A DNA stretch of 64,000 bases, taken from IMG/VR virus record IMGVR_UViG_3300030389_002443, positions 3,132-67,131 of that record. One strand, given 5' to 3'. Positions 4,099-63,136 of the stretch are shown here, piece after piece; the stretch's first letter is position 1, and every line of letters starts with the position of its first letter. This DNA is from a virus. Below the pieces are notes generated by a model. The model worked only from the letters and a program-made list of their open reading frames with translations. It was not told the DNA's origin and ran no database searches. The position numbers were made by a program, and so were the translations under genes.

Positions 4099-4159
4099 GG
4101 AATAATGCTTATATATGGGGTATGATGTGGCTTTAATTATGCAAGGGAATAATGCAGAA
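4099..4159 (+). promoter_or_regulatory. Early TATA promoter with flanking GGAATAATGC boxes, leaderless start
   Basis: Box 4099, TTATATA 4109, ATG 4139, box 4146. Confidence 0.65.
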
Positions 4160-6293: not shown

Positions 6294-7316
6294 CTATGCT
6301 TGTATAGGACTAAATTGCATTGAAAGGTCTAAGGCTCTCCTTTTAGAAGTTAAACCATCACCTAATAATGAATTTTCTAATCCTTTTGAGACTTCCTCTG
6401 GGGTCATATTGTAACCTTTTGATGAACTGACGCATTTTTGATGGTCAACCCAAAAAGTAAAGGCATTATATGCGGCCCAAGCGGTATTTTTCATATTACC
6501 TACTAGGTTAGTTTCATGTGACATATTTTGAATTAACTTAGTCAATATATTTTGACTTCTTGTAGTTAATTCGCCATCGTCATTATATGATAACTTAGCA
6601 GCCTCTATGAAATATGTTTCAATTTGTTCGGGTGTTAATTCTACATTCATTAAGTTTTGATAAAACTCTTTAGTCCTTTCAAAATCCTCATTGATAAGAC
6701 CTAATGCTTCTCTAGCAGCATCTACTTTATTGAACATATTTTTAGTATGTCTAATATTGTAAATTTCTCTTCTACTTCTACCATCTGCTAAAGCCATTTG
6801 TAAAGTATTATTGCAAACTACTCTTACGAATGTAGGCATAATTTTTACTGAACCGCTACCATCATGAGTATTAGTTAAAAGAAGGTAAGGGATTACTTCA
6901 TCACCTTCACCAATTTTTACATGATTTGGTAGTTTAGCCAATATCCAAATTGTTCGACCACCTTTCATTGAACCACATGTTTCATACATTGCTAACCCTT
7001 CTTGAACTATTTCATCAAAAAAGGCGAATGCGTCCACATTGTCAAGTACTTGGTACTTTTCACCAACTATCCCAAGAGGCAATTCATTATCGCTTCTAAC
7101 GGTAGCATATTTACTAGATATTGGTCTAAAGGAGCCATCTAACATCTTTTGGTAAACTAGTTCTTTTGTTACCATCCATTCAAGATGCGCTTTTTCAAGT
7201 GCTTCTTTTGATGTCATTAACCCTTCTACTTGTGTCCCTAACCCATGCCATGGGATTCCATTAGCATAAGCCATTTCTACTTGTCCATGCATGTTTGTAG
7301 TAAGATGATGAGCCAT
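6294..7316 (-). CDS. DUF932 / phage-plasmid (TIGR03299-like) protein
   Basis: PWHGLG, LGIVGEKYQVLDN, YETCGS..GGRTIW, LLLTNTHDGSGS, PTFVRVVCNNTL, IRHT, TAWAAYNA motifs. Confidence 0.85.
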   Translation of the reverse strand: MAHHLTTNMHGQVEMAYANGIPWHGLGTQVEGLMTSKEALEKAHLEWMVTKELVYQKMLDGSFRPISSKYATVRSDNELPLGIVGEKYQVLDNVDAFAFFDEIVQEGLAMYETCGSMKGGRTIWILAKLPNHVKIGEGDEVIPYLLLTNTHDGSGSVKIMPTFVRVVCNNTLQMALADGRSRREIYNIRHTKNMFNKVDAAREALGLINEDFERTKEFYQNLMNVELTPEQIETYFIEAAKLSYNDDGELTTRSQNILTKLIQNMSHETNLVGNMKNTAWAAYNAFTFWVDHQKCVSSSKGYNMTPEEVSKGLENSLLGDGLTSKRRALDLSMQFSPIQA

Positions 7317-7427
7317 TAAGACCACCCTCCACAACAAACAGACACTAGGAGATTTGCCTCTCCTCTAGCATAACATAACGTTGTATAACTATCTGTCATG
7401 ACCTAGTAAGAGATTACCCTATATATA

Positions 7428-9732: not shown

Positions 9733-10566
9733 TTAGGTGACAATATTTTTTGCGAAAGTTGTGGCTAGATGTAAATCTTTGATTGGGTCTATTGGAATAT
9801 CGTTGTTGATGGCCCAAGTTACCAAATCTTCTGTGGCTAGATTAGCACCAGAATCTTTAGCAAAAGGACAGCCACCTAAACCACCAATACTAGAGTCAAA
9901 TTGTCTGATGCCCAAGTCATAGGCATGTTGTACATTGTCTAGAATAGGTTCTGATTTTTCATTGTGGTGGAGATGTATTGCCCATGTAGTTCCCATGTTT
10001 TTTATTAGGGGCGAAAGTTGTGAGATAGATTCTTTATTGGCTAGGCCAGATGTATCAGATAGGACAACAGTTGAGCCTAATATTGCCGAGGATTGTAATG
10101 TGCGTTTGAGATGTTCTGGGTCAAACTTTCCTTCAACTGGACAACCAAATGCATTAGAAACATAGACACGAATATCATCTTTAGGAATGCCGTAGAGCAT
10201 ACTTCTGTATCGTGAAAAGAGTTGTTCTAGGCTTATGCCAAAGTTATCTTTATTGAATGTTTCAGAAGGAGAAAGACACACATTGAATTTTTTAGCACCT
10301 ACTGAAATTGCACGTTTAAGTCCTTTTTCATTAGGTACAAGAACTCCAAGATTACAATCAAGGTGCGAAACTTTTCTATAGAGTGCATCACTGTTAGCCA
10401 TGTTCGGAACTTTCTTCGGATGGACAAAACTTCCAACTTCTATATTTTTTAAACCAGCGTTGTATAATAAATTAACCATAGTTACTTTGTCTTCTAAAGG
10501 GATTACAGATTTGATTCCCTGTAAACCATCTCTAGGGCCGACTTCGTAAATGGTTATTTTTTCCAT
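9733..10566 (-). CDS. hmgL: Hydroxymethylglutaryl-CoA lyase (DRE-TIM family)
   Basis: YEVGPRDGLQ, IEVGSFVHPKKVPNMA, HxH, DSSIGGLGGCPFA, NLATEDL. Confidence 0.9.
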   Translation of the reverse strand: MEKITIYEVGPRDGLQGIKSVIPLEDKVTMVNLLYNAGLKNIEVGSFVHPKKVPNMANSDALYRKVSHLDCNLGVLVPNEKGLKRAISVGAKKFNVCLSPSETFNKDNFGISLEQLFSRYRSMLYGIPKDDIRVYVSNAFGCPVEGKFDPEHLKRTLQSSAILGSTVVLSDTSGLANKESISQLSPLIKNMGTTWAIHLHHNEKSEPILDNVQHAYDLGIRQFDSSIGGLGGCPFAKDSGANLATEDLVTWAINNDIPIDPIKDLHLATTFAKNIVT

Positions 10567-11685: not shown

Positions 11686-11741
11686 GGAACAATGCTTATA
11701 TATGGAATATATTCTCGTTAACAATATGCGAGGGAACAATG
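11686..11741 (+). promoter_or_regulatory. TATA promoter with variant GGAACAATG boxes heading the long plus-strand block
   Basis: Box 11686, TTATATA 11696, ATG 11726, box 11733. Confidence 0.55.
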
Positions 11742-12044
11742 ATGACTAGCAAGAAAATTAAGAAAATTAAGAAATGGCCAAGAGAGAAGAAACTAGAACT
11801 TAAATGGGTGCAAGTAAGCGAACACTGGGATAATCTTAGAGGAGAAAACCCGTCACTCGATTCAATTTTTAGTATTTTCATTCAACCTTGTCGTCATCCA
11901 GATTGTAATAGAGATAAAGTAGTGGCGAATAAATGTAATTACATTGTAGTTTCAAGAGACAACGATGATGAAGTTATGTGTGGAACACATCTTAAAATGG
12001 ATTACAGGATATGTAAAAATGAATCCTGTAAAGTATGTAATTGA
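11739..12044 (+). CDS. Cys-rich putative zinc-binding protein
   Basis: CRHPDC, CGTH, CKNESCKVC. Confidence 0.6.
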   Translation: MMTSKKIKKIKKWPREKKLELKWVQVSEHWDNLRGENPSLDSIFSIFIQPCRHPDCNRDKVVANKCNYIVVSRDNDDEVMCGTHLKMDYRICKNESCKVCN

Positions 12045-14440: not shown

Positions 14441-15222
14441 CAATAAAAAGTGCGGACAATTTGAAAAAAGACTGTTTTGGTAGAGACATAATAACAGCAA
14501 AAGTTTGCAATGTCCCTAAAAATAAAATAGTGGATTTTTGGAAAAACAGTCCCTTATCACATATGTTGAAATTTGGAGAGGACAATGAAAACCTTGTTTG
14601 TATGGCTTGTGGAATCCCAGAAAAGGAACTAGTAACAAATAATTATGGTGCTTTTGGTGGAATAAAAAAAGAAAATTCGATTAAGTGGTTAGACAGGGCG
14701 CATATTTATCCCGATATGTATGGGGGGTCTAAAAAACCTAATAATTTGCATCTATTGTGTAGAAAATGTCATGTTGAAAGTGAACTGTTAGAGGGATATG
14801 TATATTGGTTATGGATATATCTATGTTCTAAATTATATAAAGAAGGCTCAATGTTGGAATATGATTATGATGGCGGTAAAACATATTACGATGATTGTAA
14901 ATCTATCGCTAAATATGAATCACAAGCAAAAATTAGATATTGGTATGATAGAATTACAGAGTGGAATGTACATAGTGAAGAAAAGACGCCATACTCAATG
15001 TCTCAGCCACAAGCATGGACATTAATCAATGGCTCAAAATTCATGCCTAACACTTATTACGATATTGGAGAATTTAAAAATATAGAATTCATTCCAGTGG
15101 TGGATGAATGTAGGCAATGGGCTATGATTAGCGAGGAACATAAAAAACTAAACACCGCTACTATGCCTTTATTACAAACATTAAATTTTGAAACTCATAG
15201 AATTTGGAGGAATAAAAAATGA
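14437..15222 (+). CDS. HNH endonuclease domain protein
   Basis: CMACG ... RAHIYP...GGS...NNLHLLCRKCH. Confidence 0.8.
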   Translation: MTIKSADNLKKDCFGRDIITAKVCNVPKNKIVDFWKNSPLSHMLKFGEDNENLVCMACGIPEKELVTNNYGAFGGIKKENSIKWLDRAHIYPDMYGGSKKPNNLHLLCRKCHVESELLEGYVYWLWIYLCSKLYKEGSMLEYDYDGGKTYYDDCKSIAKYESQAKIRYWYDRITEWNVHSEEKTPYSMSQPQAWTLINGSKFMPNTYYDIGEFKNIEFIPVVDECRQWAMISEEHKKLNTATMPLLQTLNFETHRIWRNKK

Positions 15223-15473
15223 ACAAAAAAGAAATGGAAAAAGAATTACAAGAGACAAGCCAGAAGTTACTAACTGCTACTACGCAATTAGAGACTGCTG
15301 TACAGAACAACCAAAAATTAACACAGATGGTATTAGAGGGTAATGCACAAGTTGAGAACTTAAGTAAATTAGTTCTGCACTATGAGAAAACTCTAGGAAT
15401 AGCATTCTCAAGGTTAAATGAACGTTCCACTTTATATACTAGTGGCAGCATGAAAGAAATGGAGGAAGCATAA
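15219..15473 (+). CDS. Coiled-coil protein
   Basis: Heptad pattern; GGAGG RBS. Confidence 0.65.
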   Translation: MNKKEMEKELQETSQKLLTATTQLETAVQNNQKLTQMVLEGNAQVENLSKLVLHYEKTLGIAFSRLNERSTLYTSGSMKEMEEA

Positions 15474-15474
15474 T

Positions 15475-15675
15475 ATGCAACTTAGAATATTGAATGCAAG
15501 CGGGCATACGCCCTTAGAAGTAACAGCCGATGATGTATTGGATTACATCAGTGATTATCCTACACATTTAGTTTGTGTAGATGGAACAATTGTCAGCAGA
15601 CAAGCACTATCCGATTACGATTGGGATGGTGTAGAGACTGTTGATTTGATGCCATCTATAATAGGGGGATTTTAG
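15475..15675 (+). CDS. Ubiquitin-like (beta-grasp, ThiS/SAMP-like) protein with GG-F C-terminus
   Basis: 66 aa; MQLRIL first strand, VCVDG, terminal TVDLMPSIIGG plus one extra Phe; E1 and JAB genes within 3 kb. Confidence 0.75.
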   Translation: MQLRILNASGHTPLEVTADDVLDYISDYPTHLVCVDGTIVSRQALSDYDWDGVETVDLMPSIIGGF

Positions 15676-15710
15676 TCCACACATCATATGATTACCACCC
15701 TAAAGGTAAC

Positions 15711-15767
15711 GGAGTGTGGGGAGAGTGTGGATAGGCCTCTATTAGCCTTTGATGCTCCCCACATTCC
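15711..15767 (+). ncRNA. Structured RNA A (13-bp closing stem)
   Basis: GGAGTGTGGGGAG / CTCCCCACATTCC with one G-U; inner AGGC/GCCT hairpin. Confidence 0.5.
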
Positions 15768-15789
15768 ACTTTACATTCCTTAGTTTACA

Positions 15790-15875
15790 GGGAAGGTAGG
15801 GTAGTAGATTAAGGAAATAACACTTCGTTTAGAACTAACACCACGAGATGTTTGGTTCGCCATCCTTACCTTCCC
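15790..15875 (+). ncRNA. Structured RNA B (12-bp closing stem)
   Basis: GGGAAGGTAGGG / CCTTACCTTCCC with one G-U. Confidence 0.5.
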
Positions 15876-15912
15876 ACTTACAGGAAAAAATATAAAAAAT
15901 TAGGTGATTATA

Positions 15913-16083
15913 ATGAAAGACCATGACCCAGAATATGTTACAAGCAGACGCTCAACAGACAAAGTTATTGCTACTAAATGTAGGATATGTGGAGGTCAAT
16001 TAACTCACCCATTAGAAGCAAGGAAAGGATTTCATGACAAGTGTTTAAAGAATTACAAGTCAAAAACTTACGGGGTTAAATAA
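15913..16083 (+). CDS. Small zinc-finger protein (DUF6011-like), 56 aa
   Basis: Manual translation CRICGGQLTHPLEARKGFHDKC; AGGTGA RBS; TAATG coupling to next gene. Confidence 0.6.
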   Translation: MKDHDPEYVTSRRSTDKVIATKCRICGGQLTHPLEARKGFHDKCLKNYKSKTYGVK

Positions 16084-17270
16084 TGAAAGTAAACGGTTTA
16101 GAATTAGATATAAAATTTCAAATTAATGAGGTTAATACGGAACCAACGTTTGACGAATCGAGGCGTGAATTAAGACGACAATATTATGTAGACGAAAATT
16201 TAGAAACCGACAATAACAGATACGATGGGACTAAAAACTTACTCGTTGAAAATTTTTGTAAAGTTTTAGATAAAAATTTACCCCACGTTATTTACACAAA
16301 AGAAGTACCATTTAGTTATATTATGACATTTTTTATTAATGGGTTTCCTTTTATTTTTGAGAAATATGATAGCAGATTTAAATTGATGGGTAAAATTATG
16401 ACAAAGAAAGAAGCCTTAACTGCTATTGTGAAAACAGCAATGTATGGTGGAACTTCTAAGAAAGAAGGTGGGGATGTATTTTTATTCTTTAGTAAATATA
16501 TCGACACTCCTAATATAATAAAAAGGGCAATAGAAGAAAGGATAGTATATAGGTTCCCTCAATATGAGATAACTCCTATTTTCCAAAATGTTTTAATTAA
16601 TGTTCAAAAGGTGGGAAAGAAAAGATACGCTTTAGAAATAAGTGATAATGTGTGGGGAGGAATATCTGAAAAAGATTTGATAGCATTTATCAAGATACAT
16701 AGTCATAAGAAAAAAAATGTGCGTTCTAAATGGTGGAAAATAAAGCCAGAAAAATTATGGGAATATACAATTGGTGAAGCCCCAACAGAGTCTCAACTTA
16801 ATACTATGATTCAATTCTTATTACATAATAGAAAAGATAAAATTGTCGTAGACAAATCTATCGAGTTAGTTAAAAGTTTGACTAAATTCAAAGATATAAA
16901 AATTAGTCGAAGAGGGGAGCAACTGCAAGTGTTAGTGAGAGGTAAGGAAGCATATTGGTATATTCATGGTGAGATAAAAGATACTGTTCATGGTGGTTTG
17001 CAGGACGTGGCTACTACCTTGATAACTAAGTGCCTATCAAACGATATTCCTTGGTACAGTAGGTTTTCTGGGCCAGATGTTTGTATTGACAATTTGATGG
17101 GAGGTAGTTCCATTGGCGACCAAATTTATTCTAGGGCCATGGTATGTATGAATGATAATATATCTAAAAATACTGTCAGTACGATACGAAATAAACTTAG
17201 AAATTATGGTGATGAAATAATGACAATAGATTTTTTTGACGAAATAGAAAATATATGGGAGGAAGAATGA
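16083..17270 (+). CDS. Uncharacterised 395-aa protein in the Ubl operon; candidate E2-like or substrate component
   Basis: Long ORF; C-terminal GPDVCIDN...GDQ..SR..ND segment; function inferred from context only. Confidence 0.6.
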   Translation: MKVNGLELDIKFQINEVNTEPTFDESRRELRRQYYVDENLETDNNRYDGTKNLLVENFCKVLDKNLPHVIYTKEVPFSYIMTFFINGFPFIFEKYDSRFKLMGKIMTKKEALTAIVKTAMYGGTSKKEGGDVFLFFSKYIDTPNIIKRAIEERIVYRFPQYEITPIFQNVLINVQKVGKKRYALEISDNVWGGISEKDLIAFIKIHSHKKKNVRSKWWKIKPEKLWEYTIGEAPTESQLNTMIQFLLHNRKDKIVVDKSIELVKSLTKFKDIKISRRGEQLQVLVRGKEAYWYIHGEIKDTVHGGLQDVATTLITKCLSNDIPWYSRFSGPDVCIDNLMGGSSIGDQIYSRAMVCMNDNISKNTVSTIRNKLRNYGDEIMTIDFFDEIENIWEEE

Positions 17271-18100
17271 TGCGAAATTGTGAGGAGTGTAAATATACGG
17301 GAATGACTTTTGATGATAGGCTCGGTGAATGGGTTTGTGATGTATGTGGTTATGTCCAAGTAGAAAACTTTGAAGAAACTGTCTCTCTTAGCCATCACAC
17401 TACAGGCGAACAAATACGTGATGCTGATGGGTATGGTCACATTAATCCGAGTCAATACAGAAATTTCACTGCGCATGAAGAAGGTTATATGATATTAGGT
17501 GAATTCATTGATAGTGATATTATCAGAATAGAGTTTAGAAGTAACTATAACAATTTAGTAAATAACCATGTGTTTAGGGGATATTCGATTATAGAGAGAT
17601 GTGCGGCCTTAGCATATTTCACCTTGAAAGCAAATGGGGTTAGAGTAGACACGACATCTATTTCTAAAATTACTGATGTACCTAAAAAAAGAATAAGTCG
17701 TATTAGTAAAAAAATCGCTAACCATTTTGGACAATCTAGAATATTGTATCAAAGTAATCCAGAGGCAGACATTGATAAAGTTAGGCATGAATTAAATTTA
17801 TCCTTTGCTTTCGCTAACGATGTCAGAAAAGTTTACTACGCATTAACACAAAGTTTGGATGAAGTATTAGATACTAAAAGAAAAAGATTCATGGCAGGAG
17901 TTATATGGCTCACATTACAAATAAGGGGAGAAACTGGTAGGAATAAGGTTTCTATGGAGTCTGTAGCAATGGCACTAAAAAACAACAAAAGTAAAGCAAC
18001 GGTATCATACGGTTATAATGATATATTGCAAGCAATCAAATTAAACAAACAAATGGTAAATAAAATAACAATAGAACAATTAATAGAGGGAGCATGGTAA
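17267..18100 (+). CDS. TFIIB/TFB-like transcription factor
   Basis: Zn ribbon CEEC..FDDRLGEWVCDVCG; cyclin-repeat-like FRGYSIIERCAALAYFTLK and MAGVIWL..SVA. Confidence 0.75.
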   Translation: MMRNCEECKYTGMTFDDRLGEWVCDVCGYVQVENFEETVSLSHHTTGEQIRDADGYGHINPSQYRNFTAHEEGYMILGEFIDSDIIRIEFRSNYNNLVNNHVFRGYSIIERCAALAYFTLKANGVRVDTTSISKITDVPKKRISRISKKIANHFGQSRILYQSNPEADIDKVRHELNLSFAFANDVRKVYYALTQSLDEVLDTKRKRFMAGVIWLTLQIRGETGRNKVSMESVAMALKNNKSKATVSYGYNDILQAIKLNKQMVNKITIEQLIEGAW

Positions 18101-18101
18101 A

Positions 18102-18656
18102 ATGAGCAAGAGAGTATTAGTAATAGGTGCGGGTGGAATAGGTAGTAATTTAATCCCAATTCTTAGCAGAATAGGATTATACAACATCACTGTATTTGAC
18201 CCAGACATAGTAGAAGAAAAAAATATCACTTATCAAAACTTTAAGTTAGGTGAAGTAGGGATGAAAAAAGCAAATGTAATGGTTAAGTATAAAAAAGTAA
18301 AAGGTGAACCATATGCAATATTAACTAAAGAGCAAATTAAGGGATATGATTTGGTTGTATGTTGTGTTGATAACTTAGCAGCAAGAAGACTGCTATATGA
18401 TTATGATAAGCCTTGGTTGGATTTAAGAGCGCAAGGTAGAGGGTGTGTCCTTATCTCATATAAAACGCCAGTCGAAAAATATAACGAATTGTTAGCGGGG
18501 CCAGATGGTAATTTCTCATGTCAAGGAAATGAATGGGATGGTAAAGCAAAGGGTATCAATTGTATGCATTACGTTGTGGCTGGATTAGGCGCACAATGGA
18601 TTCAAAGATGGTTCGCTGGAGATTACGTTGATGATGAAATGGTGGTGTGGTTTTGA
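18102..18656 (+). CDS. ThiF/MoeB/E1-like adenylyltransferase
   Basis: VLVIGAGGIGS, FDPDIVEEKNITYQ, KKA, DLVVCCVDNLAAR, candidate catalytic SC; no CxxC zinc pairs. Confidence 0.9.
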   Translation: MSKRVLVIGAGGIGSNLIPILSRIGLYNITVFDPDIVEEKNITYQNFKLGEVGMKKANVMVKYKKVKGEPYAILTKEQIKGYDLVVCCVDNLAARRLLYDYDKPWLDLRAQGRGCVLISYKTPVEKYNELLAGPDGNFSCQGNEWDGKAKGINCMHYVVAGLGAQWIQRWFAGDYVDDEMVVWF

Positions 18657-19177
18657 ATTTAGAAAACGCAATAGTCAATCAAGAATGGAAACTAGAAATA
18701 GAAAGTGCGTGGCAAAGATTCAAAGATTGGGGGTATGTAAATAAATATCTTAGGGAAGATTTAACACACTATCTTAGACATACTAAAGCAGGTCAAGAAG
18801 TTTTAGATACTATTTGGGACATGAGTAAAACAGCATTTGATTATGATAGAGAAGTACAAGTAGTAATAGACAGCAACAATAAATTGTTCATTACTTTTGG
18901 TACTGGCTCATTAGTTTGGTTTCATGATAATGAAGAATTAACTGGTATGAGAATGCCCATCAAATGTTGGATTCATACTCACCCATTTGGTAAGGCTTAC
19001 TTTAGTGGAACGGATTGGAACACAATCAATACTTATGAGCCTATAATGGATTCAGCGATTGTCTTGGGTGGCGCAGAACGAATGACTTGGATTAAAGGAA
19101 AAAACGAAACATACTTTGAAGAATCTGTTCCAATTAATAAAGGGCCAGCAGCATTGGGCTTTTGGGAGGAGGAATGA
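18647..19177 (+). CDS. JAB/JAMM (MPN+) metallo-isopeptidase
   Basis: E (REVQ) ... H-T-H-x7-S-x2-D (HTHPFGKAYFSGTD). Confidence 0.85.
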   Translation: MVLNLENAIVNQEWKLEIESAWQRFKDWGYVNKYLREDLTHYLRHTKAGQEVLDTIWDMSKTAFDYDREVQVVIDSNNKLFITFGTGSLVWFHDNEELTGMRMPIKCWIHTHPFGKAYFSGTDWNTINTYEPIMDSAIVLGGAERMTWIKGKNETYFEESVPINKGPAALGFWEEE

Positions 19178-19410
19178 TGTTCGTGTTTGTCAAGAAGGTA
19201 GATGACCATTGGAGAATCGCAGTGGCCACAATCGAAGAAGTGGAAAACCATCAAGTAGATTGGTCAAACGATGAATTTTCAAGAGCCACCTTCTGGACAA
19301 AAAACGCAGGAGAGGCGTTGCTTGTTGCGGCTAGAATGTATCACTCTCTAAAAGAAGATGGGGTAATAGGGATTATTCCACTGGAGGACACAGCGAATGA
19401 AATGTTTTGA
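19174..19410 (+). CDS. Hypothetical protein
   Basis: GGAGG RBS; ATGA coupling with JAB gene. Confidence 0.6.
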   Translation: MMFVFVKKVDDHWRIAVATIEEVENHQVDWSNDEFSRATFWTKNAGEALLVAARMYHSLKEDGVIGIIPLEDTANEMF

Positions 19411-19502
19411 GTGTCGCCATTCTATATTGTGGGGAGAAGAAAGAGTTCCAGACAATAATGGTAGAATATATTGTAGTCAAGAATGTTTAAGCAAGAGGAG
19501 AA

Positions 19503-19868
19503 ATGAAAATGAAAGCAGTAGGTAAATGGGTATTGATTGAAGTAGAACAACAAGAAGAAAACGGTATTCTTATAGAAGAAGGTAATCGTGGAAAAATAGT
19601 ATCGTATGGTGCTGATTGTTGTTTCGTGAAAGACATAGCAGAAGGTATTATGACGGCCTTACACGAAAACGGTGAGATGTGGAAATCCCCACCAGAAGAA
19701 GTGTTTATACAAGGTTCGGCAGAAAATCCTTTCATTGGGGCTGAATGTTATTTTAGCCCTAGAAACGCTATAGATGTTGAAGGTTTGAAATGTGTAAGAG
19801 ACGCAGATATTTTTTGTGTTATACCTTTGGTTAGAACAATAGAAGTAGGTGGTGATACTTTATGTTAA
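19503..19868 (+). CDS. groES: GroES-like co-chaperonin with internal insertion
   Basis: MKAVGKWVLIE...NGILI...GKIVSYG ... DIFCV; directly upstream of GroEL. Confidence 0.7.
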   Translation: MKMKAVGKWVLIEVEQQEENGILIEEGNRGKIVSYGADCCFVKDIAEGIMTALHENGEMWKSPPEEVFIQGSAENPFIGAECYFSPRNAIDVEGLKCVRDADIFCVIPLVRTIEVGGDTLC

Positions 19869-21388
19869 TTGGTGATGAGGCAAGGGAAGTTTTCAAAACT
19901 GGTTTACACAAAGTACACACAGCAGTTGCCCCGACACTAGGGCCAGCAGCAAGAACAGTCGCACTAAAACGTAATGGTAGAACTATTGTAATTAATGATG
20001 GTGTTACCATTGCAAGAAAGGTTTGGTCAGAAGACCCTTATGAACAAATGGGTATTGATTTAATTTTAGGGGCAGCAGAAAACGCTCAATCTAAATCTGG
20101 TGATGGAACAACAACAGCGACAGTATTGGCTAATGCTATTGTTCAAAATTATGATTATAGTCGTGTTTCAGATTTTACTGAGTTATTAGAAAAAGACATT
20201 AAAAAAGTATGTGAGTTCTTATACAATAAAAAGAGTATTTGTAATTTAGAAGATGTTACTAATGTGGCTACTATCGCTGCTAACAATGATTCTGAGTTAG
20301 GTCAACTTATTCATGACGTGTTCAAACAAATAGGTAAAGATGGTGTAATCACTGTTGAAAAATCAGATACAAACCAAACAACATATAATATGACAGAAGG
20401 ATTAGAAATAGACAAAGGGTATTTATCTCATCTTATGATTAATGATGATTCTACGGGGGAAGCGATTTTAAAAAATCCTTTAGTATTATTAACGGATAAA
20501 GAAATTAAAAAGTTTGAAGATATATTACCAGCATTAAAAATAGCAGATGCTAATTCACAACCACTTCTTGTTATATGTAAAGAAATGGAAGGTAGTGCGT
20601 TATCTAATATCTTGTTAAACATAGTCCAAAAAAGAATAGATTGTTGTGTGGTTCGTGCGCCAGATTGGGGGCCGACACAAGTTGAACTATTAAGAGACAT
20701 GGCTGCTATTTGTGGGGCTAACCCATACTTGTCTACATTAGATATGGATTTAAGAAAAATCAAAAAAGATGATTTAGGGACTTTAGATAGAGCAGTAGTA
20801 AATAGATACAGTACTGTTTTAATTGGTAAACCACCAAACGAAGAAATATATCAAAAGAGAATAGGCGACCTTAATGCTATGTTAGAACAAGTAAAAGAGG
20901 ATTGGGAAAAAGACAAACTCAGAACAAGACTTGGTAGATTAACTGGTGGGGTGGCCGTAATAAAAGTAGGTGGTATGACTGAAACAGAAATTACCGAAAG
21001 AAAAGAAAGATTAGATGATGCATTAAATGCAAGTAGAGCAGCATTACAGGATGGTATCATTGCTGGTGGAGGATTTATGTTGAATCTTGCTACTATAGAG
21101 TGTGACATCAAAAGTGAAGCATTGAAAAAAGCATTATCAGAACCTATGAAAATTATTGCTAGAAATGCAGGTCAAGAAATTAGTGGTCAGTATGAAAGAG
21201 ATATTGTTGATGGTTATGGTTATGATGCTAAAAACAAAAGAATGATTAAAGACTTTTTAGATTTACAACATGGTATTGTTGACCCAGTTTTGGTTACTAT
21301 GAATTCATTGAGGGTAGCAGCATCTATTGCAAATTTGATATTATCAACAGAAGTAATTATTGCGGAGAAGGAACAAAATGGATTCTAA
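19862..21388 (+). CDS. groEL: Group I chaperonin GroEL-like
   Basis: TLGP, NDGVTIAR, GDGTTTATVLA, EGLEIDKGYLS, GGVAVIKVGG..E.E..ERK, GIVDP. Confidence 0.95.
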   Translation: MLIGDEAREVFKTGLHKVHTAVAPTLGPAARTVALKRNGRTIVINDGVTIARKVWSEDPYEQMGIDLILGAAENAQSKSGDGTTTATVLANAIVQNYDYSRVSDFTELLEKDIKKVCEFLYNKKSICNLEDVTNVATIAANNDSELGQLIHDVFKQIGKDGVITVEKSDTNQTTYNMTEGLEIDKGYLSHLMINDDSTGEAILKNPLVLLTDKEIKKFEDILPALKIADANSQPLLVICKEMEGSALSNILLNIVQKRIDCCVVRAPDWGPTQVELLRDMAAICGANPYLSTLDMDLRKIKKDDLGTLDRAVVNRYSTVLIGKPPNEEIYQKRIGDLNAMLEQVKEDWEKDKLRTRLGRLTGGVAVIKVGGMTETEITERKERLDDALNASRAALQDGIIAGGGFMLNLATIECDIKSEALKKALSEPMKIIARNAGQEISGQYERDIVDGYGYDAKNKRMIKDFLDLQHGIVDPVLVTMNSLRVAASIANLILSTEVIIAEKEQNGF

Positions 21389-21779
21389 GAAAGTAATATC
21401 TGTTAAGTTTCCTGCACCAGTGGGAGCAGAAGTAAAGTGTCCTATATGTGATGGTAATAAATGCATAGCATGTGATTGGTCTGGTAAATTATCAATCACT
21501 GTAGATGCTAAGGTTCCTATTCAAAGAGCGCACATTGTCAAGTATGTTGTAGATAATTTACAAACAATGGCTCAAGAGATAACTAAAAAATATGGTATGA
21601 CACCACAGATAAATACTAAAGAAGTAATTAAAATTAATGACGGTCAATATGAGATAGTTCAGATAAGTAGTATAGGAGGCGCATGTTGGATTGCTAATAG
21701 AATAGACGAATATGCACCACCACAATATTTTACGAATTACCAAGAGTTGACTAAGTTTTGTGGAGGAATGGAAATATGA
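21378..21779 (+). CDS. Protein with DnaJ-like CxxCxG zinc finger
   Basis: CPICDG..CIACDWSG. Confidence 0.6.
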   Translation: MDSKKVISVKFPAPVGAEVKCPICDGNKCIACDWSGKLSITVDAKVPIQRAHIVKYVVDNLQTMAQEITKKYGMTPQINTKEVIKINDGQYEIVQISSIGGACWIANRIDEYAPPQYFTNYQELTKFCGGMEI

Positions 21780-21997
21780 AAATGATAGGTAAGATACCAA
21801 GAGATATGAATAATGAAATACAGGTAAAAACTGGTAAATACAAAGGAATCGAAGTTATAGATATTCGTTGGTACTATAATAAAGATGGGGAAATGTTGCC
21901 AGCAACCAAAGGGTTTAGATGTAATCGTGATGAGTTTAAACATTTGATTGGTGTGTTAAAGAGGGTAGAAGGTGAGCAAGATGGACTTAGGGATTAA
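21776..21997 (+). CDS. PC4/YdbC-family ssDNA-binding protein
   Basis: YKGIEVIDIRWYY.KDGEMLPATKG. Confidence 0.85.
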   Translation: MKMIGKIPRDMNNEIQVKTGKYKGIEVIDIRWYYNKDGEMLPATKGFRCNRDEFKHLIGVLKRVEGEQDGLRD

Positions 21998-22181
21998 ATT
22001 AATATTAGTAAGGTTACAACAAGTTAGAGACCGAGTAGAAACTCTATATGGTGATATTGATAAATTAATTACTGATACTAATATGGAAACGAAAGAATTC
22101 CAAGTGGGTATGTTTTTGGGAATGGGTATGATTGTAGAACAACTTATGACTTTATTCCCAGATTTATTAGAGGAGGAATAA
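21981..22181 (+). CDS. Hypothetical protein
   Basis: AGGTGA RBS. Confidence 0.55.
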   Translation: MDLGIKLILVRLQQVRDRVETLYGDIDKLITDTNMETKEFQVGMFLGMGMIVEQLMTLFPDLLEEE

Positions 22182-28238: not shown

Positions 28239-28990
28239 TAATAAATATGGATAGTTTTCTAAAGGCAATCAAGTATTGTACAATGAAGGGCAAATGGGGC
28301 GATAAAAGTGGTGAGTTATCATCTCAGATAACTTGTAAAGTCGAAGATAATAATTTATATTTGCTTAGTGCTAACAGAGCAAACTCTGTTGCTGTAGCAT
28401 ATAAGTTGGTCTTAGACAACGCAGAAGATGTTGAGTTTGTTTTAGATTTAGAAGTGTTGCCTATGTTGAAAACCTTTTCTGGTGAGGTTGAGTTTGAGGT
28501 TGATAATGTTTTGACAATATTGCAAGGTAGTGATTCTGCTACAGTTCCGTTAGTCGCTCATCATGAAAATGAATCAGCGATTGATAGATTTAGTCCTAAG
28601 TTAATCAATTGGATTGATGAAGGTTTTGGGCCAGACTTTACATTCGGTTCAACTAAATATGACTTAACAGTAAACTTAGATGCTGATAGTTTGACTCAAT
28701 CTATTAAGGCTTGTGACACAGTGGGCGCATCTAATTATATTTTGAACTTTCATCCAAATGAAAGATTATATTTACAAGCATCTAAAGGTCAAAGAAAAAT
28801 ATCTAACGAATTACAAATGAGAGAACATAGTGGTAACGCTGCTACTGTTCCTTTTGCAGCACCTATTCATGTTTTATTTCAAAGTGAAAACGAATGGGAT
28901 AATAGAATCAATTTGAGATTACATGATGACATGCCGTTATTTGCAAGTACAGATTTCGCTGCAATAGTAGTAGCACCATACATGAGTTGA
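28235..28990 (+). CDS. Sliding clamp (PCNA-like), divergent
   Basis: About 251 aa acidic two-domain alpha/beta pattern, C-terminal VVAP; between ATPase and PolB, RFC nearby. Confidence 0.7.
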   Translation: MIINMDSFLKAIKYCTMKGKWGDKSGELSSQITCKVEDNNLYLLSANRANSVAVAYKLVLDNAEDVEFVLDLEVLPMLKTFSGEVEFEVDNVLTILQGSDSATVPLVAHHENESAIDRFSPKLINWIDEGFGPDFTFGSTKYDLTVNLDADSLTQSIKACDTVGASNYILNFHPNERLYLQASKGQRKISNELQMREHSGNAATVPFAAPIHVLFQSENEWDNRINLRLHDDMPLFASTDFAAIVVAPYMS

Positions 28991-30636
28991 GATACATGAT
29001 TATCACACACAAAGATAATACTATTTATCTTAGATGGCGTGATGAAAATGGTAATAGATTAGAAAAAGAAGTTACTGATTTTAGACCATATTTTTATGTA
29101 AATTCTGATGAAAGAATGCCGCAAGCATATAATATTCGTGTTACTAATTCTCAAGGTAGAAAGATGAAACTACCTCAAGAGTTTGTTTACGAGAGAACCA
29201 ACCATGTCAATTTAGAAAAACAACCTTTGACTAAAGTTATGGTTACTAAATATAATGATATTAGAACCGCTAGAAAATACTTTGATAAAACATACGAGGC
29301 TGATGTAAGTTTCACTCATCGTTATTGTATTGATGAGATGACCGAAATACCAGAATATGATTTACGCAAGTGGTATTGGGATATGGAATGGATGACTACA
29401 GGAGAATATGATGGGGCAATAACAACTATTGCTGTTTATGATAATTATGCAGATTGCATAAACTTATACTATTGGACTCCCAAAGATGCTAAACTAGATA
29501 TGATTGTAGTAGATGCTGTCGAGTATCATTTTAATTCAGAAAAAGATATGCTTGAGGCTTTTGTTGCTGATGTAGAAGAACAAGACCCAGACATGTTGAT
29601 TGCATGGTTTGGGTTACAAGCAGATGTCCCTAAGTTATTTGAAAGGTTAGAAGAAAATAATATTGATATTGGTAGACTATCTCCTATAGGATTAGTTAAA
29701 CCTAGTAAGAAAGCATGGAATCAAATATCACCTATATCTCAACCTATTTATGGTAGATTGTGTCTAAACTTAGACCATGCGTTTGAAAGACAATGGAACG
29801 ATGCACAACGAGGAACTTTACCATCTACTGCTTTAGATTTCGTTGGCAATCTTTTATTTGGAGAAGGTAAAAAGAAAGAGTCTAAATTTACGGATAAAAA
29901 CGAATTCTTTAGAAGGGCTTGGTTAGAAGACACTCAAAATTATTTAGATTATAATATTCAAGATGTGGTATTACTAAAACGAATAGATGATGAAAACGCA
30001 ATATCAGAATCGATACTAGCATTACAACGATTACTAGTTGCACCTTTCGATGCTTGTTTCTATGCTTCTCACATGGGGGGTATTTATTTCATGAGACACG
30101 CTGATTGGAAAGTACCAACAGGCGATAAGGACGCTGAAAGAGTAGAGGTAACTGGGGCTATGATATTCGACCCAGAAATAAACAAAACACATGGTAGGCA
30201 TGATAATGTTGCGGCCTTCGATTTTGCACAACTATATCCTTCTATGATGATGGCTAGGAATATTAGTTGGGAAACTAAATCTCGTACACCTACAGATTTT
30301 GCTTGTAATTTAGCGACACCACAAGACTTTAGCCCTGTAATCAAAAAAGATATGAGGTATTATAAAACAGATAAACTAGGTTTGTTACCAAGGTCTGTTC
30401 TTAATCTTAAACGACTTAGAGATGAGTACAAGTCTAAAATGAAAAAGGCAGACTCTAAAGAAGAATATCAAAAATGGTTTAACAATCAGATGGCTGTAAA
30501 AAGACTTATGGCCAGTTTCTATGGTGTAACTGCGTTTCCTAAGTTTGGTTGGTATGACCCAGATTTGGCTAACAGTATTACTGCTAGTGCTAGAGAAGCA
30601 ATTAGACATGCTGCTAAAGTTGCGGAGGGATTATAA
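28987..30636 (+). CDS. polB: Family B DNA polymerase, N-terminal part (exonuclease, motifs A and B)
   Basis: FRPYFY, YEADV, WDME (ExoI), YNIQD (ExoIII), DFAQLYPSMM (A), KRLMASFYG (B). Confidence 0.92.
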   Translation: MRYMIITHKDNTIYLRWRDENGNRLEKEVTDFRPYFYVNSDERMPQAYNIRVTNSQGRKMKLPQEFVYERTNHVNLEKQPLTKVMVTKYNDIRTARKYFDKTYEADVSFTHRYCIDEMTEIPEYDLRKWYWDMEWMTTGEYDGAITTIAVYDNYADCINLYYWTPKDAKLDMIVVDAVEYHFNSEKDMLEAFVADVEEQDPDMLIAWFGLQADVPKLFERLEENNIDIGRLSPIGLVKPSKKAWNQISPISQPIYGRLCLNLDHAFERQWNDAQRGTLPSTALDFVGNLLFGEGKKKESKFTDKNEFFRRAWLEDTQNYLDYNIQDVVLLKRIDDENAISESILALQRLLVAPFDACFYASHMGGIYFMRHADWKVPTGDKDAERVEVTGAMIFDPEINKTHGRHDNVAAFDFAQLYPSMMMARNISWETKSRTPTDFACNLATPQDFSPVIKKDMRYYKTDKLGLLPRSVLNLKRLRDEYKSKMKKADSKEEYQKWFNNQMAVKRLMASFYGVTAFPKFGWYDPDLANSITASAREAIRHAAKVAEGL

Positions 30637-30863
30637 TGGTCAATGCTAAAAACAAATATCAAAGAATTATCAAACAAGCAATAGATATATTAGGTGATGA
30701 TGAAATGACCACTAGAGAACTTTATGATATTTATGTTGATAAACATTTTAGGTCATGTCCTACAATACAAGGATTAGGTATGATTTTAAAAAGACATAAA
30801 GAATTTGTTAGATTAAATAAATATGATTATCCTGCAAGATGGAGGGTTCGGGATGAGCAGTGA
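30636..30863 (+). CDS. Small winged-helix protein inserted in split polB
   Basis: MTTRELYD...CPTIQGLGMILKR...W. Confidence 0.6.
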   Translation: MVNAKNKYQRIIKQAIDILGDDEMTTRELYDIYVDKHFRSCPTIQGLGMILKRHKEFVRLNKYDYPARWRVRDEQ

Positions 30864-31098
30864 GGCTACACATATATGTAGAAGATGTAAAGGAACTGAG
30901 GCTTATAAAACAGTGATAAAAGGTAAGGGGTTAGTTGTGTGTGTAGAATGTGATTACGAATGGGTTCCACATGGTTATTGTTTACATTGTAGAAAAGCAC
31001 TACAACCTATTGGTTCTGCTAGAATGAATGGCGCACCACATAAGGATTGGAGTTCTAGAAAATATCACAAAAAATGTTGGAAGGAGTTGAATTTATGA
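30853..31098 (+). CDS. Double zinc-finger protein inserted in split polB
   Basis: CRRC/CVEC and CLHC/HKKC. Confidence 0.65.
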   Translation: MSSEATHICRRCKGTEAYKTVIKGKGLVVCVECDYEWVPHGYCLHCRKALQPIGSARMNGAPHKDWSSRKYHKKCWKELNL

Positions 31099-31898
31099 AA
31101 GTAATATACGCTCACACAGATTCTTTGTTTTGTCCTGTTGAGTCGATAGACCACGCTAAAAGCACATGTGATTATCTCAATCAACAGGTTAGAGAAATAT
31201 TCCCTAATATTCTTGGTTTAGACCAGCACCCAGTTACTTTAGAATTTGAAAAGTTTTATTCTTCTCTCGGTATAGGTATTACTAAAAATCGAAATGCTGG
31301 TTTCATATCTTGGAAAGATGGTGAACATTTGGATGAGCCAGAATTTGTAGTCACAGGTTTCTCTGTAAAAAAATCTACAGAAATACACATTGCAAAAATT
31401 GTGCAAGAGATGGTTTTGAAAATGTGGGCGAATGGCAAATCTGAAAAGGAAGTCACCAAATATTTAAAGCAAGCATACCAAAATATCAAGAAAGGTAAAA
31501 TAGAAATGGGTAGTTTTCTTAAAAGGTCAAGGCTTAGAAAATCTATTAATGATTATGCAACATTAGCGGGTGGAGTTGCAGGTGCAGTATATTACAATAC
31601 TCACTTGAATCCTTCTGACCCCATAACAGATTCTTTTATCACAATCAAATGCAATATATTATCTGGCCCTAAAACTGTTCCACTAAATGATGGGACTTCT
31701 AGGGTAGCGACTTATATTTCAGTCAAAGAAAAAAATGAACTATTGCCTTTATTAGAAGAAGGTAAGATAGAAATAGATTATGGGTATTATGCCGACTATT
31801 GTATTAACAAGGCTGACCCTATATACAAAGCAATGGGTTGGGATATGTATCACATTTACGCTGACCCGAAACAAAAAACATTGGAGGATTGGTTTTGA
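31095..31898 (+). CDS. polB: Family B DNA polymerase, C-terminal part (motif C, thumb, PIP box)
   Basis: Begins VIYAHTDSLF; LEFEK, KNRNAG; ends QKTLEDWF. Confidence 0.92.
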   Translation: MKVIYAHTDSLFCPVESIDHAKSTCDYLNQQVREIFPNILGLDQHPVTLEFEKFYSSLGIGITKNRNAGFISWKDGEHLDEPEFVVTGFSVKKSTEIHIAKIVQEMVLKMWANGKSEKEVTKYLKQAYQNIKKGKIEMGSFLKRSRLRKSINDYATLAGGVAGAVYYNTHLNPSDPITDSFITIKCNILSGPKTVPLNDGTSRVATYISVKEKNELLPLLEEGKIEIDYGYYADYCINKADPIYKAMGWDMYHIYADPKQKTLEDWF

Positions 31899-62930: not shown

Positions 62931-63136
62931 TAATGACCACCGAACCAACCCCACACCATTTCATATAAATTAATACCAAGTACACCAATCATATGACCTA
63001 ATAAGAAAGTAGCAACACTAGCAGTTACTCCCCAAAACCATGCTCTCATCTTGATAAAAAATAAATCAGCAGAATGCGCCCTACTCATATCATAGGCTAC
63101 TTGTTCGTTGCCTGTAATTGATGGGAGAAAAGGCAT
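62930..63136 (-). CDS. Small membrane protein (GTPase module)
   Basis: WFWGVTASVATFLLGHMIGVLGI; TAATG coupling to the GTPase. Confidence 0.7.
   Translation of the reverse strand: MPFLPSITGNEQVAYDMSRAHSADLFFIKMRAWFWGVTASVATFLLGHMIGVLGINLYEMVWGWFGGH

Follow-up and report, generated by a model that had tools for sequence, protein, structure and literature searches.

Protein tagging of the ubiquitin type, which employs an activating enzyme (E1), a conjugating enzyme (E2) and a deubiquitinase (DUB), has been described for eukaryotes and a few archaea and, from 2023-24 on, also for bacterial anti-phage systems. Here we describe a gene set of this kind on the virus side. We analyzed a window of 64,000 nucleotides (nt) from the IMG/VR virus record IMGVR_UViG_3300030389_002443 (positions 3,132 to 67,131 of that record; all coordinates below are positions within the window), in which a gene block at 15475-19177 encodes a ubiquitin-like protein (Ubl), a ThiF-type E1, a JAB/JAMM metalloprotease and a protein of 395 amino acids (aa) with an E2-like candidate domain. 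We lean towards the view that this block is a virus-encoded system for Ubl conjugation and deconjugation, located in a conserved early/replication-side block of magrovirus-type viruses. A previous reading of the same letters without database searches (the original prediction) had proposed that the virus owns a tagging set that works without an E2. The first part of that proposal held, in that Ubl, E1 and JAB were conserved and syntenic in every related contig with enough flanking sequence, whereas the assumed E2-free form is the part that our results speak against. The four genes on which the argument turns are the following.

15475..15675, plus strand: Ubl precursor of 66 aa ending in ...MPSIIGGF, predicted beta-grasp, with the mature form predicted to end at Gly65
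16083..17270, plus strand: 395-aa protein with a predicted UBC/RWD-like C-terminal domain at residues ~250-384 (nt ~16830-17234) and Cys334 at nt 17082-17084
18102..18656, plus strand: minimal ThiF/E1-like adenylating enzyme of 184 aa (Pfam ThiF, PF00899, E 3.9e-19, 69.2 bits against a cut-off of 28.1)
18647..19177, plus strand: JAMM/MPN+ metalloprotease of 176 aa with Glu69, His110, His112, Ser120 and Asp123

Comparison with described conjugation systems

The bacterial Bil system consists of the Ubl BilA, the E2 BilB, the JAB-type DUB BilC and the E1 BilD (Chambers et al., 10.1101/2023.09.26.559546; PDB 8tyz). As the same source describes, the newly made Bil Ubl carries extra residues after the C-terminal Gly; the JAB DUB pre-processes it, and E1 and E2 then conjugate it to lysines (10.1101/2023.09.26.559546). 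Judged by predicted folds, the viral kit likely resembles this E1-E2-Ubl-DUB arrangement rather than E2-free sampylation; an E1-E2 cascade is the more likely form because the 395-aa protein ends in a domain with a predicted UBC/RWD-like fold and an invariant Cys. The viral block contains the same four kinds of parts as Bil, with the E2 call only probable here, and the viral Ubl had the Bil Ubl (8tyz_B) among its best structural matches (Z 5.2). However, Bil is a bacterial anti-phage defence and the viral kit is carried by an archaeal virus. BilD is described with inactive and active adenylation domains and a mobile Cys domain, whereas in the viral E1 one domain of 184 aa makes up the whole protein and Tyr takes the place of the motif Arg. 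Furthermore, the viral E2-like domain forms the end of a 395-aa multidomain protein without sequence similarity to E2 families, and a TFB gene is embedded in the block.

Sampylation in Haloferax volcanii (SAMP1-3, UbaA and HvJAMM1) shares with the viral block its archaeal setting, a beta-grasp tag with Gly-Gly (GG), a ThiF-type E1 and a JAMM enzyme, there a desampylase, and the SAMP1 structure of Methanosarcina was among the fold matches of the viral Ubl (Z 4.5). Sampylation needs no E2, and the SAMPs carry no tail after their GG. The viral proteins differ in that the E1 falls below the UbaA cut-off and the Ubl matches no Ubl family of Pfam or NCBIfam. In type II CBASS, Cap2 (an E2-E1 fusion) was the best sequence match of the viral E1 among solved structures, and a JAB partner (Cap3) occurs in both systems. 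Cap2 conjugates a CD-NTase, not a free Ubl. No CD-NTase or effector family turned up in Pfam scans of the window, and the similarity to the CBASS enzyme is limited to the Rossmann segment (residues 2-64).

Sporadic sets of JAB, E1-like and E2-like proteins with novel Ubls, comparable in composition to the viral set, have been described in the operons of Iyer, Burroughs and Aravind 2006 (PMC1779556), in Bub (PMC11601596) and in PRTRC. Those sets, however, are bacterial and mostly chromosomal or plasmid-borne. Bub is further set apart by oxyester intermediates and a serine protease (PMC11601596), and the PRTRC ThiF model was a weak NCBIfam match of the viral E1 (7.3e-14) that missed its cut-off. 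The Caldiarchaeum subterraneum operon for Ub, E1, E2, RING-E3 and Rpn11 (PMC5654768, PMC3082918) resembles the viral block in its archaeal tag, E1, E2 and JAMM protein and in a small Zn-binding partner that adjoins the E2; the viral Zn finger, however, is a single C2HC site and not a RING, and the viral proteins have no sequence-level membership in eukaryote-type families.

For archaeal viruses, the prior literature that we found holds E1/ThiF mentions only, and the probable E2 is the result added here. The RaFAH paper counts a MoeB/ThiF gene among the most prevalent auxiliary metabolic genes ('AMGs') in the genomes of archaeal viruses and connects this family with the first ubiquitination step (PMC8276007); its passages on ThiF and ubiquitin concern the E1 only and name no Ubl, JAB, E2-like protein or gene block. 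E1-like genes are also reported in a preprint on Asgard viruses. In their main text, the magrovirus papers, the Aoguangviridae profile, the archaeal tailed virus (arTV) taxonomy paper and the East China Sea paper do not use the words ubiquitin, ThiF or JAB; their supplements or figures may list ThiF.

Conservation of the gene set in related viruses

IMG/VR was scanned with the E1, and 317 stretches encoding a relative were obtained, with 80 loci kept for the counts. The JAB gene was counted in loci with at least 3 kb of downstream flank, and the genes for the 395-aa protein, TFB and Ubl in loci with at least 6.9 kb of upstream flank. Profile searches of the open reading frames (ORFs) of these loci showed that JAB was present in 79/79 loci, the 395-aa protein in 48/48 and TFB in 47/48. 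The Ubl gene lay within the flank in 43/48 loci; in the remaining 5/5 it was found a few hundred bases past the flank in the whole records, on the strand of the E1, which brings the count to 48/48. As far as the flanks reached, the genes followed a common order on one strand, namely Ubl ... (Zn finger)-E2-like-TFB-E1 ... JAB ... GroEL, with inserts of variable length (2.4-6.7 kb from Ubl to E1 and -9 to 1580 nt from E1 to JAB). The kit was thus found in every related contig examined, in an ocean virus lineage described as abundant.

The motifs were as constant as the genes. The JAMM motif was complete in 69/69 unique JAB homologues, [FY]SCQG was present in 67/67 E1s and GG in 43/43 unique Ubls, so that the occurrence of the motifs is far beyond chance. 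The co-conservation of GG-x, E1 and JAB in related viruses, which the original prediction had named as a check, was found as expected from it (GG 43/43, JAB 79/79, Ubl 48/48). Chance juxtaposition of the genes does not fit the conserved synteny across related contigs. The idea that Ubl, E1 and JAB are one conserved virus-encoded functional set is well supported by the comparison of related viruses, and we consider it highly probable that the three act jointly on the C-terminus of the Ubl.

The Ubl precursor and its C-terminus

The original prediction had described the 66-aa protein as beta-grasp-like with an IIGG-F end. In accord with this, the AF2 model of the Ubl (pLDDT 88.5) had the topology b-b-a-b-b-a-b, followed by a disordered tail of low pLDDT at residues 61-66. 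The top Foldseek rows were ubiquitin (best E 2.3e-3, none at or below 1e-3, 24-25% identity), and nearly all of the top 50 rows were ubiquitin or Ubls. VIA-wide, an independent aligner, gave MoaD, Ubl domains and the Bil Ubl 8tyz_B as the top matches (Z 5.0-5.4), and ThiS, Urm1, SAMP1 and TtuB were also in its list, with Z 4.2-5.4 for the whole group. The Ubl is accordingly predicted to fold as a beta-grasp. Searches of Pfam, PHROG, NCBIfam and PADLOC gave no match for the Ubl, and its family profile found only unrelated proteins in PDB (best E 0.3).

G64 and G65 were invariant in 39/39 aligned Ubls. In the 43 unique Ubls (that of the window and 42 others), the GG was followed by 0-4 residues of varied identity: no residue in six, one residue in seven and 2-4 residues in the rest. 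An invariant GG followed by a tail that varies in length and identity has the character of a processing signature, in keeping with the DUB-dependent processing of Bil Ubls (10.1101/2023.09.26.559546), and a residue after the GG would imply proteolytic maturation. The original prediction had made activation of the Ubl dependent on JAB through the extra residue. The tail does imply maturation, but the dependence is not universal, since 6/43 Ubls end at GG.

The window Ubl contained no Lys in its 66 residues, compared with a mean of 7.0% in 76 window ORFs. Among the homologues, 12/39 had no Lys and 25/39 had one, nearly always at positions 2-6. This scarcity is only suggestive of selection against self-conjugation of the tag. 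In the window Ubl, the last Lys or Arg before the GG is Arg42, so that trypsin would leave a 23-residue remnant, and diGly proteomics with trypsin is unsuited for this reason. Conserved surface His residues were seen in the segments GHT and HPTHW. A search for longer or fused Ubls yielded four proteins, which look like an N-terminal miscall, a fusion with an upstream ORF and two proteins that run on or diverge into unrelated sequence; no poly-Ubl form was found in this search, which the tool rates as weak evidence.

A small beta-grasp protein of this kind might also serve as a sulfur carrier like ThiS, MoaD or TtuB, in which case it would be adenylated and thiocarboxylated for tRNA thiolation or cofactor synthesis and JAB would do no more than mature it. 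The small size of the Ubl and the presence of MoaD, ThiS and TtuB among its structural matches agree with such a role, as do the ThiF and MoeB models, which are the best NCBIfam matches of the E1, and the labels 'ThiF family' and 'thiamine biosynthesis protein' of the GenBank relatives. Clusters of ThiS/MoaD, JAB and E1 have been tied to sulfur assimilation (Iyer et al. 2006, PMC1779556), and host enzymes could serve as partners. However, none of the partner families of sulfur transfer (rhodanese, ThiG/ThiH, MoaE, NcsA/TtuA, cysteine desulfurase) was found among the 80 window ORFs scanned against Pfam. The original prediction had likewise noted that no thiamine, molybdopterin or tRNA-thiolation genes were visible, and the scan agreed with it. 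In addition, the ThiF, MoeB and UbaA cut-offs were all missed, JAB is kept where the Ubl has no tail, the tag is strongly depleted in Lys, and a UBC-like protein, with its invariant Cys, is a conserved member of the block. We regard a sulfur carrier as quite unlikely and consider protein conjugation, rather than sulfur transfer, to be quite probably the output of the system.

The JAMM protease

The JAB segment HTHPFGKAYFSGTD matches HxHx7Sx2D, with Glu69 upstream, and E69, H110, H112, S120 and D123 were invariant in 41/41 aligned JABs. The overlapping JAB gene with a perfect E...HxH-x7-S-x2-D motif, as the original prediction had it, was confirmed in both respects, with an overlap of 10 nt. 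Family models matched the protein weakly (Pfam Prok-JAB, 17.2 bits, E 0.0048, cut-off 25; PADLOC JAB, E 0.0033), and the JAB family profile matched the AMSH-LP deubiquitinase in PDB at E 1e-4, across the JAMM motif and over 34 residues only. JAB was retained in six lineages whose Ubl already ends at GG, indicating that tail trimming is not its only job; it probably also deconjugates. A phage tail-assembly pair of Ubl and JAB (lambda TAPI/K type) was rejected, as the genes belong to the replication-side block, on the opposite strand from the structural genes.

The activating enzyme

The ThiF/E1 enzyme with nucleotide-binding motifs that the original prediction had recognized was borne out by the Pfam ThiF match given above and by the invariance of the Gly loop and other site residues. 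The protein has a G-x-G-G-x-G loop, Asp33, Lys56, Asp90-Asn91, Arg95 and a candidate Cys140 within FSCQG, and G9, G11, G12, G14, D33, K56, D90, N91 and R95 were invariant in 25/25 E1s. We take the roles of these nucleotide-site residues to be those assigned in MoeB and ThiF. In the larger set, G.GG.G was present in 66/67 E1s (the exception being a 5'-truncated ORF), and C[VA]DN and KN-x-x-YQ were present in 67/67. Cys140 was the sole invariant Cys in the crossover region. The FSCQ Cys had been put forward as the candidate catalytic residue; it proved invariant and is a putative catalytic residue, which aligns weakly with the CxxC of MccB.

The top PDB matches of the E1 were Cap2 (E 1.3e-6), a ThiF-type protein (9egb), MccB, UBA5 and Uba4; no publication was found for the PDB codes 9EGB, 9EGC and 9EGD. 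PADLOC models of CBASS E1-E2 proteins matched at 6.1e-12 at best, in the Rossmann segment only (residues 2-64). All of the curated NCBIfam cut-offs were missed, those of ThiF (53 bits against 275), PRTRC-ThiF (51.7 against 144.75; 7.3e-14) and UbaA (38.1 against 450; E 1.1e-9) as well as that of MoeB. The viral E1 begins eight residues before the Gly loop, and no CxxC pair was seen in its sequence. With this late start, the absence of a CxxC pair, a single crossover Cys and the missed cut-offs, it is a distinct, minimal branch. Its invariance argues for function rather than decay, with activity not assured. A search of a 5.8-billion-protein collection returned 684 relatives at E at or below 1e-3; the best 120 of these were 176-193 aa long, and several were encoded on contigs of 80-97 kb. 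One relative in GenBank is a 'putative ThiF family protein [Prokaryotic dsDNA virus sp.]'. Peptide adenylation of the MccB type was rejected, as the substrate is a folded beta-grasp with GG.

The similarity to CBASS enzymes also bears on a reading in which the viral Ubl, E1 and JAB act on a Ubl pathway of the host, stripping host tags or flooding the pathway with decoy Ubl as a counter-defence. CBASS E1-E2 models were the best PADLOC matches of the viral E1, and the bacterial Bil and CBASS Cap2/Cap3 systems are described as antiviral, which makes viral countermeasures plausible. A decoy or an eraser, however, would need neither an E1 of its own nor an E2-like protein with an invariant Cys nor an invariant GG in every genome, and we consider interference of this kind very unlikely.

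A probable E2 in the 395-aa protein

The original prediction had left the 395-aa gene as an unknown within a sampylation-like cycle without E2; this part of it was not upheld, since the C-terminal domain of the protein is predicted to be UBC/RWD-like with an invariant Cys. The AF2 model (pLDDT 79.9) showed a disordered N-terminal stretch of ~50 residues and three alpha/beta units, the last of which is the C-terminal domain. Foldseek against PDB gave weak but consistent matches to E2s, the BRCC45 UEV and the Knl1 RWD (best E 0.022). With residues 250-384, VIA matched Ubc12, E2-25K, Ubc13, Ubc9 and others at Z 5.0-5.5 over 110-119 residues, which covers the entire UBC core. VIA-wide, run over 48,161 chains without Foldseek, gave Ubc9 (Z 6.2) and UBE2F (5.8), then Ubc12 and RWD domains, with the E2s of CBASS and of African swine fever virus also listed. 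Approximately 42 of the 50 VIA-wide rows concerned the C-terminal domain, and nearly all of these belonged, by their descriptions, to the UBC/UEV/RWD superfamily. Overall, the UBC alignments of residues 250-384 had Z 5.0-6.2 and rmsd 3.4-4.4 over 94-119 residues.

The catalytic Cys of an E2 sits in the loop after the fourth strand. In the AF2 model, Cys334 lies in the loop between the strand at 309-313 (the fourth strand) and the helix at 344-356. It was invariant in 44/44 aligned sequences, and the motif G-P-x-C-I-D-N around it was present in 64/64 unique sequences, a motif that we take to resemble the active-site signature of E2s. The invariant Cys334 in an E2-like loop position lifts the case for an E2 above what the modest Z scores would give, and we regard the 395-aa protein, on the strength of this model, as a probable E2.

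Searches of Pfam, PHROG and NCBIfam gave no name for the protein, and the ESM Atlas gave no usable match. BFVD returned three unnamed relatives and a few weak rows for giant-virus E2s (E 0.04-0.07), and a tblastn search of the phage collection found no match. Among 1.84 billion proteins, the E2-like family comprised 159 representative clusters at E at or below 1e-3, and in most of the longer members the domain stood at the C-terminus of a protein of ~330-490 aa. The family is small and virus-bound. Prediction of a complex of E1, Ubl(1-65) and 395-aa protein(50-395) gave a median of 0.38, with controls at 0.00, 0.00 and 0.19; this is below the required margin and speaks neither for nor against binding.

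The same data can be read as tagging without an E2, as in sampylation, with the E1 alone activating and conjugating the Ubl, the JAMM protein maturing and removing it, and the 395-aa protein having no enzymatic part in the pathway, whether as a scaffold of RWD type, as a substrate or as an early protein unconnected with it. In favour of this reading, the E1 belongs to the small ThiF/MoeB/UbaA type, with UbaA among its weak NCBIfam matches (E 1.1e-9), and the UBC-like call is a fold-level one (Z at most 6.2) in a superfamily whose non-catalytic RWD and UEV domains score like E2s. However, an invariant Cys occupies an E2-type loop, with G-P-x-C-I-D-N in all 64 unique homologues, the 395-aa gene was found in all 48 loci adjoining TFB and E1, and the UbaA equivalog cut-off is far off (38 against 450 bits). 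We judge E2-independent tagging to be rather unlikely.

Proposed cycle and points against it

From the presence, conservation and synteny of the parts, from their motifs and from their predicted folds, we infer a cycle whose chemical steps, order and targets would be as follows. The 66-aa beta-grasp Ubl would be made as a precursor with 0-4 residues past the invariant GG, and the JAMM protease would trim this tail (Phe66 here) and expose Gly65. The minimal ThiF-type E1 would then adenylate Gly65 and may load the Ubl on its single invariant Cys140. From there the Ubl would be passed to Cys334 of the UBC-like C-terminal domain, with the 395-aa protein acting as the E2 and with its N-terminal domains and the small Zn-finger partner as a possible substrate adaptor. 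Finally, the Ubl would be joined to lysines of target proteins, of the host or of the virus, and the same JAMM enzyme would be able to reverse the tagging.

Several findings weigh against this cycle. With regard to the tag, the Ubl has the size of ThiS and MoaD, and MoaD heads the VIA list; in relatives the Ubl gene lies 2.4-6.7 kb from the E1 gene, and in the window a structured spacer parts it from the enzyme genes. The E1 has only 184 aa and is without a second adenylation, Cys or UFD domain, and the N-terminal segment that holds the Arg finger in MoeB-type enzymes is missing from it. In the alignments to 9egb, MccB and Cap2, an invariant Tyr44 replaces the Arg of the canonical NLxRQ ATP-binding motif, and Cys140 aligned weakly, in a non-significant stretch, with the second Cys in the CxxC Zn motif of MccB-type enzymes and not with a catalytic Cys of the crossover loop. 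The E2 call comes from an AF2 model whose Z does not exceed 6.2; by the tool's own warning, values below 8 may reflect a common arrangement. No Pfam E2 family (PF00179, Prok-E2) was matched by any of the 44/44 members scanned at E up to 1; no PDB match was found for the profile of the whole protein or of the C-terminal domain (the latter at E up to 10), nor any PADLOC match, and no HPN-like motif was seen in the alignment of the family. The record is a fragment (CheckV 71%), and partner genes could lie beyond its ends.

We hold it unlikely that the block amounts to a private E1-E2-Ubl-DUB cascade for host takeover, made up of a stripped-down E1 and a new E2 family with an embedded TFB. Under such a scheme, host transcription or defence proteins could be tagged for the archaeal proteasome while the viral TFB redirects RNA polymerase. 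The idea arises from the constant position of TFB between the E2-like and E1 genes and from a report that Haloferax TBP2, a TATA-binding protein, is degraded by proteasomes when it carries ubiquitin-like isopeptide bonds (PMC4895103). Takeover of transcription through tagging is an attractive, unsupported speculation drawn from this analogy. If host proteins were tagged, this would be a new mode of host takeover by archaeal viruses, and a private cascade together with TFB would be the prokaryotic-virus counterpart of eukaryotic viruses that exploit ubiquitin. A true cascade would also inform the evolution of E1-E2 systems from sulfur carriers. The very small E1 with its unusual ATP-site residue, the rare E2-like family and the nearly Lys-free tag are all small enough to express and assay.

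Layout of the gene block and neighbouring genes

The remaining features in and around the block are listed below.

15219..15473, plus strand: predicted coiled-coil ORF of 84 aa, 1 nt upstream of the Ubl start, with weak coiled-coil-type Pfam matches only
15676..15903, plus strand: intergenic spacer of 228 nt with two long predicted hairpins
15904..16083, plus strand: Zn-finger protein of 59 aa, ORF call, with a single site C-x2-C-x14-H-x2-C
17255..18100, plus strand: TFB/TFIIB homologue of 281 aa (Zn ribbon, two cyclin-like repeats), encoded between the E2-like protein and the E1
19503-19868, plus strand: GroES-like gene directly downstream of the block, labelled from sequence reading and the text of the Aoguangviridae profile, with no family match
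19862-21388, plus strand: GroEL chaperonin gene (PHROG 6.2e-109; Pfam Cpn60_TCP1 6.1e-39)

All six ORFs that the original prediction had placed within 15475-19177 were present there, on the plus strand. The translational coupling proposed for them agreed with the junctions from the Zn finger gene to JAB, which overlap or abut: the Zn finger and 395-aa genes share 1 nt, the 395-aa and TFB genes overlap by 16 nt, TFB and E1 are 1 nt apart, and E1 and JAB overlap by 10 nt. It did not extend to the Ubl gene, which is not coupled to the Zn finger gene because 228 nt separate the two; the Ubl gene is coupled instead to the upstream 84-aa coiled-coil ORF. Homologues of this ORF were found upstream of the Ubl in the related loci L001, L003, L010, L016 and L029, and it is a possible accessory gene. 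A metagenomic protein of 146 aa (P0278) reads as an in-frame fusion of the 84-aa coiled-coil ORF with the Ubl, which hints that the ORF is functionally tied to the tag or that the fusion is a sequencing artefact.

The spacer at 15676-15903 folded as RNA at -67.8 kcal/mol (z -3.39 compared with shuffles), without an Rfam match; Rfam gave no match over the whole of 15000-19500. By inspection, an A/T-rich, TATA-like stretch was seen in the spacer ~25 nt before the Zn-finger gene. It may mark a terminator or promoter boundary that separates the Ubl gene from the enzyme genes. The corresponding spacer of L003, an 85%-identical relative, measures only ~105 nt, and for this reason part of the 228 nt may be an insertion.

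The true start of the Zn-finger gene is probably the ATG at 15913. The conserved pattern in 41 aligned sequences was P.Y...AT.CR.CG..L...E.H..C, and no family match was found in Pfam, PHROG or NCBIfam. A small CxxC..HxxC ORF ended just upstream of the E2-like gene in 45/63 loci and was absent from 18. The Zn finger is accessory to the E2-like gene.

The TFB-like gene, correctly recognized in the original prediction, is a genuine TFB/TFIIB homologue. Its family profile (39 homologues) matched TFIIB in PDB at E 1.1e-19 over positions 17-266, which include the Zn ribbon and the cyclin repeats, and archaeal TFB cores at 3e-18. The four Zn-ribbon Cys residues were invariant, and the NCBIfam TFIIB model gave E 1.7e-7 without reaching its cut-off. 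The genome map of the related family Aoguangviridae likewise carries a TFB (PMC10768690, figure legend). A few genes downstream of the viral TFB, a 79-aa protein (21758-21997) has a PC4 domain (transcriptional coactivator p15 / ssDNA-binding; E 1.1e-10).

GroEL followed JAB in most of the related loci. The GroES-like and GroEL genes form a neighbouring proteostasis module, and membership in the tagging system is not implied. Several ORFs were seen to end in Glu-Glu-Glu where the next gene begins, among them those at 17256-17270 (the 395-aa protein, ...IWEEE), 19163-19177 (JAB, ...FWEEE) and 22170-22181 (ORF 21972-22181, ...LLEEE). The same end was present in most JAB homologues, and GGAGG-ATG repeats were among the repeat families of the window. 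These gene ends likely reflect a GGAGG ribosome-binding site for the downstream gene within the coding end.

Relatives in phages and in bacterial and archaeal genome bins

A tblastn search with the viral E1 found full-length relatives (~26% identity) in 82 records of phages, the majority of them crAss-like or Flavobacterium phages. In Bacteroides phage crAss001 (NC_049977.1, 81394-83792), gp76, a ThiF protein (Pfam 8e-16), adjoins gp77, a 'metalloprotease' (Prok-JAB E 4.9e-4), in the replication module. These phage proteins differ from the viral E1 and JAB in being longer (383 and 414 aa), and the 10.5-kb crAss001 locus gave no match to the Ubl or E2-like profile. The annotation of gp76 as a 'thiamine biosynthesis protein' is probably misleading; ThiF-JAB pairs of the crAss001 type may belong, under a wrong label, to the same general theme, and they give access to it in cultured phages.

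A scan of bacterial and archaeal genome contigs with the E1 gave four loci. Two were on contigs with 55-56% identical E1s in metagenome-assembled genomes (MAGs) labelled Maricaulis sp. (L083) and Altibacter sp. (L084), and profiles confirmed the Ubl, E2-like, E1 and JAB proteins on the Altibacter contig, whereas the ORF scan of the Maricaulis contig came back empty. Both look like contigs of archaeal (magrovirus-like) viruses binned into bacterial genomes. The third was an Archaeoglobaceae MAG with a 38%-identical E1 without partners nearby. The fourth lies in an uncultured Actinomycetota MAG (L086:7404-9204), where an ORF of 522 aa combines a distant match to the E1 with a JAMM-like motif and is directly followed by a 73-aa ORF ending in ...LGGC; this pair may represent a fused E1-JAB protein of bacteria together with a tailed Ubl of its own.

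Genome setting of the virus

The record has 67,131 bases, of which the window is a part, and its CheckV completeness is ~71%. The G+C content of the window is ~34%, and the strand bias switches near 38-39 kb. Pfam and PHROG scans identified on the plus strand a replication block with an ATP-dependent DNA ligase, an RFC-like clamp loader, a split family-B DNA polymerase, a PD-(D/E)XK nuclease and an ERCC4 nuclease, and on the minus strand a tail-tube protein amid large unannotated ORFs. GroEL, an HNH endonuclease and an HMG-CoA-lyase-like gene were also found in the window by these scans. TFB, split PolB, GroEL/GroES and HMG-CoA lyase are described for the magroviruses of marine group II (Poseidoniales) archaea and for the family Aoguangviridae (PMC5434244; PMC10768690). 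The gene content of the window fits these descriptions, which is why we consider the virus to be a tailed archaeal virus of the magrovirus type, a match to descriptions rather than a formal taxon placement. The magrovirus lineage is described as globally abundant (PMC5434244).

The family-B DNA polymerase is encoded in two ORFs (28987-30636 and 31074-31898) with a 91-aa ORF (30823-31098) in between, and this split agrees with the PolB-NTD and PolB-CTD labels in the legend of the Aoguangviridae genome map (PMC10768690). Two genes run on the minus strand within the mostly plus-strand early region, namely that of a DUF932 protein (6294-7337, E 1.7e-52) and the HMG-CoA-lyase-like gene (9733-10566, E 2.4e-22). 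No tRNA was found in the window. In the structural block, a 2,680-aa ORF (42848-50890, minus strand) adjoins a 988-aa ORF, both without a Pfam match, and a small protein with a Ras/Arf-like GTPase domain (62265-62954, minus strand; MMR_HSR1 8.8e-7, Ras 2e-4) is encoded among the structural genes. A motif of ~51 nt, which starts with TTATATATG and ends with ...GGGAATAATG, was present in three copies (956-1006, 4109-4159 and 11696-11746) that were 61-76% identical to the reference copy; these may be promoter-plus-leader elements of early genes.

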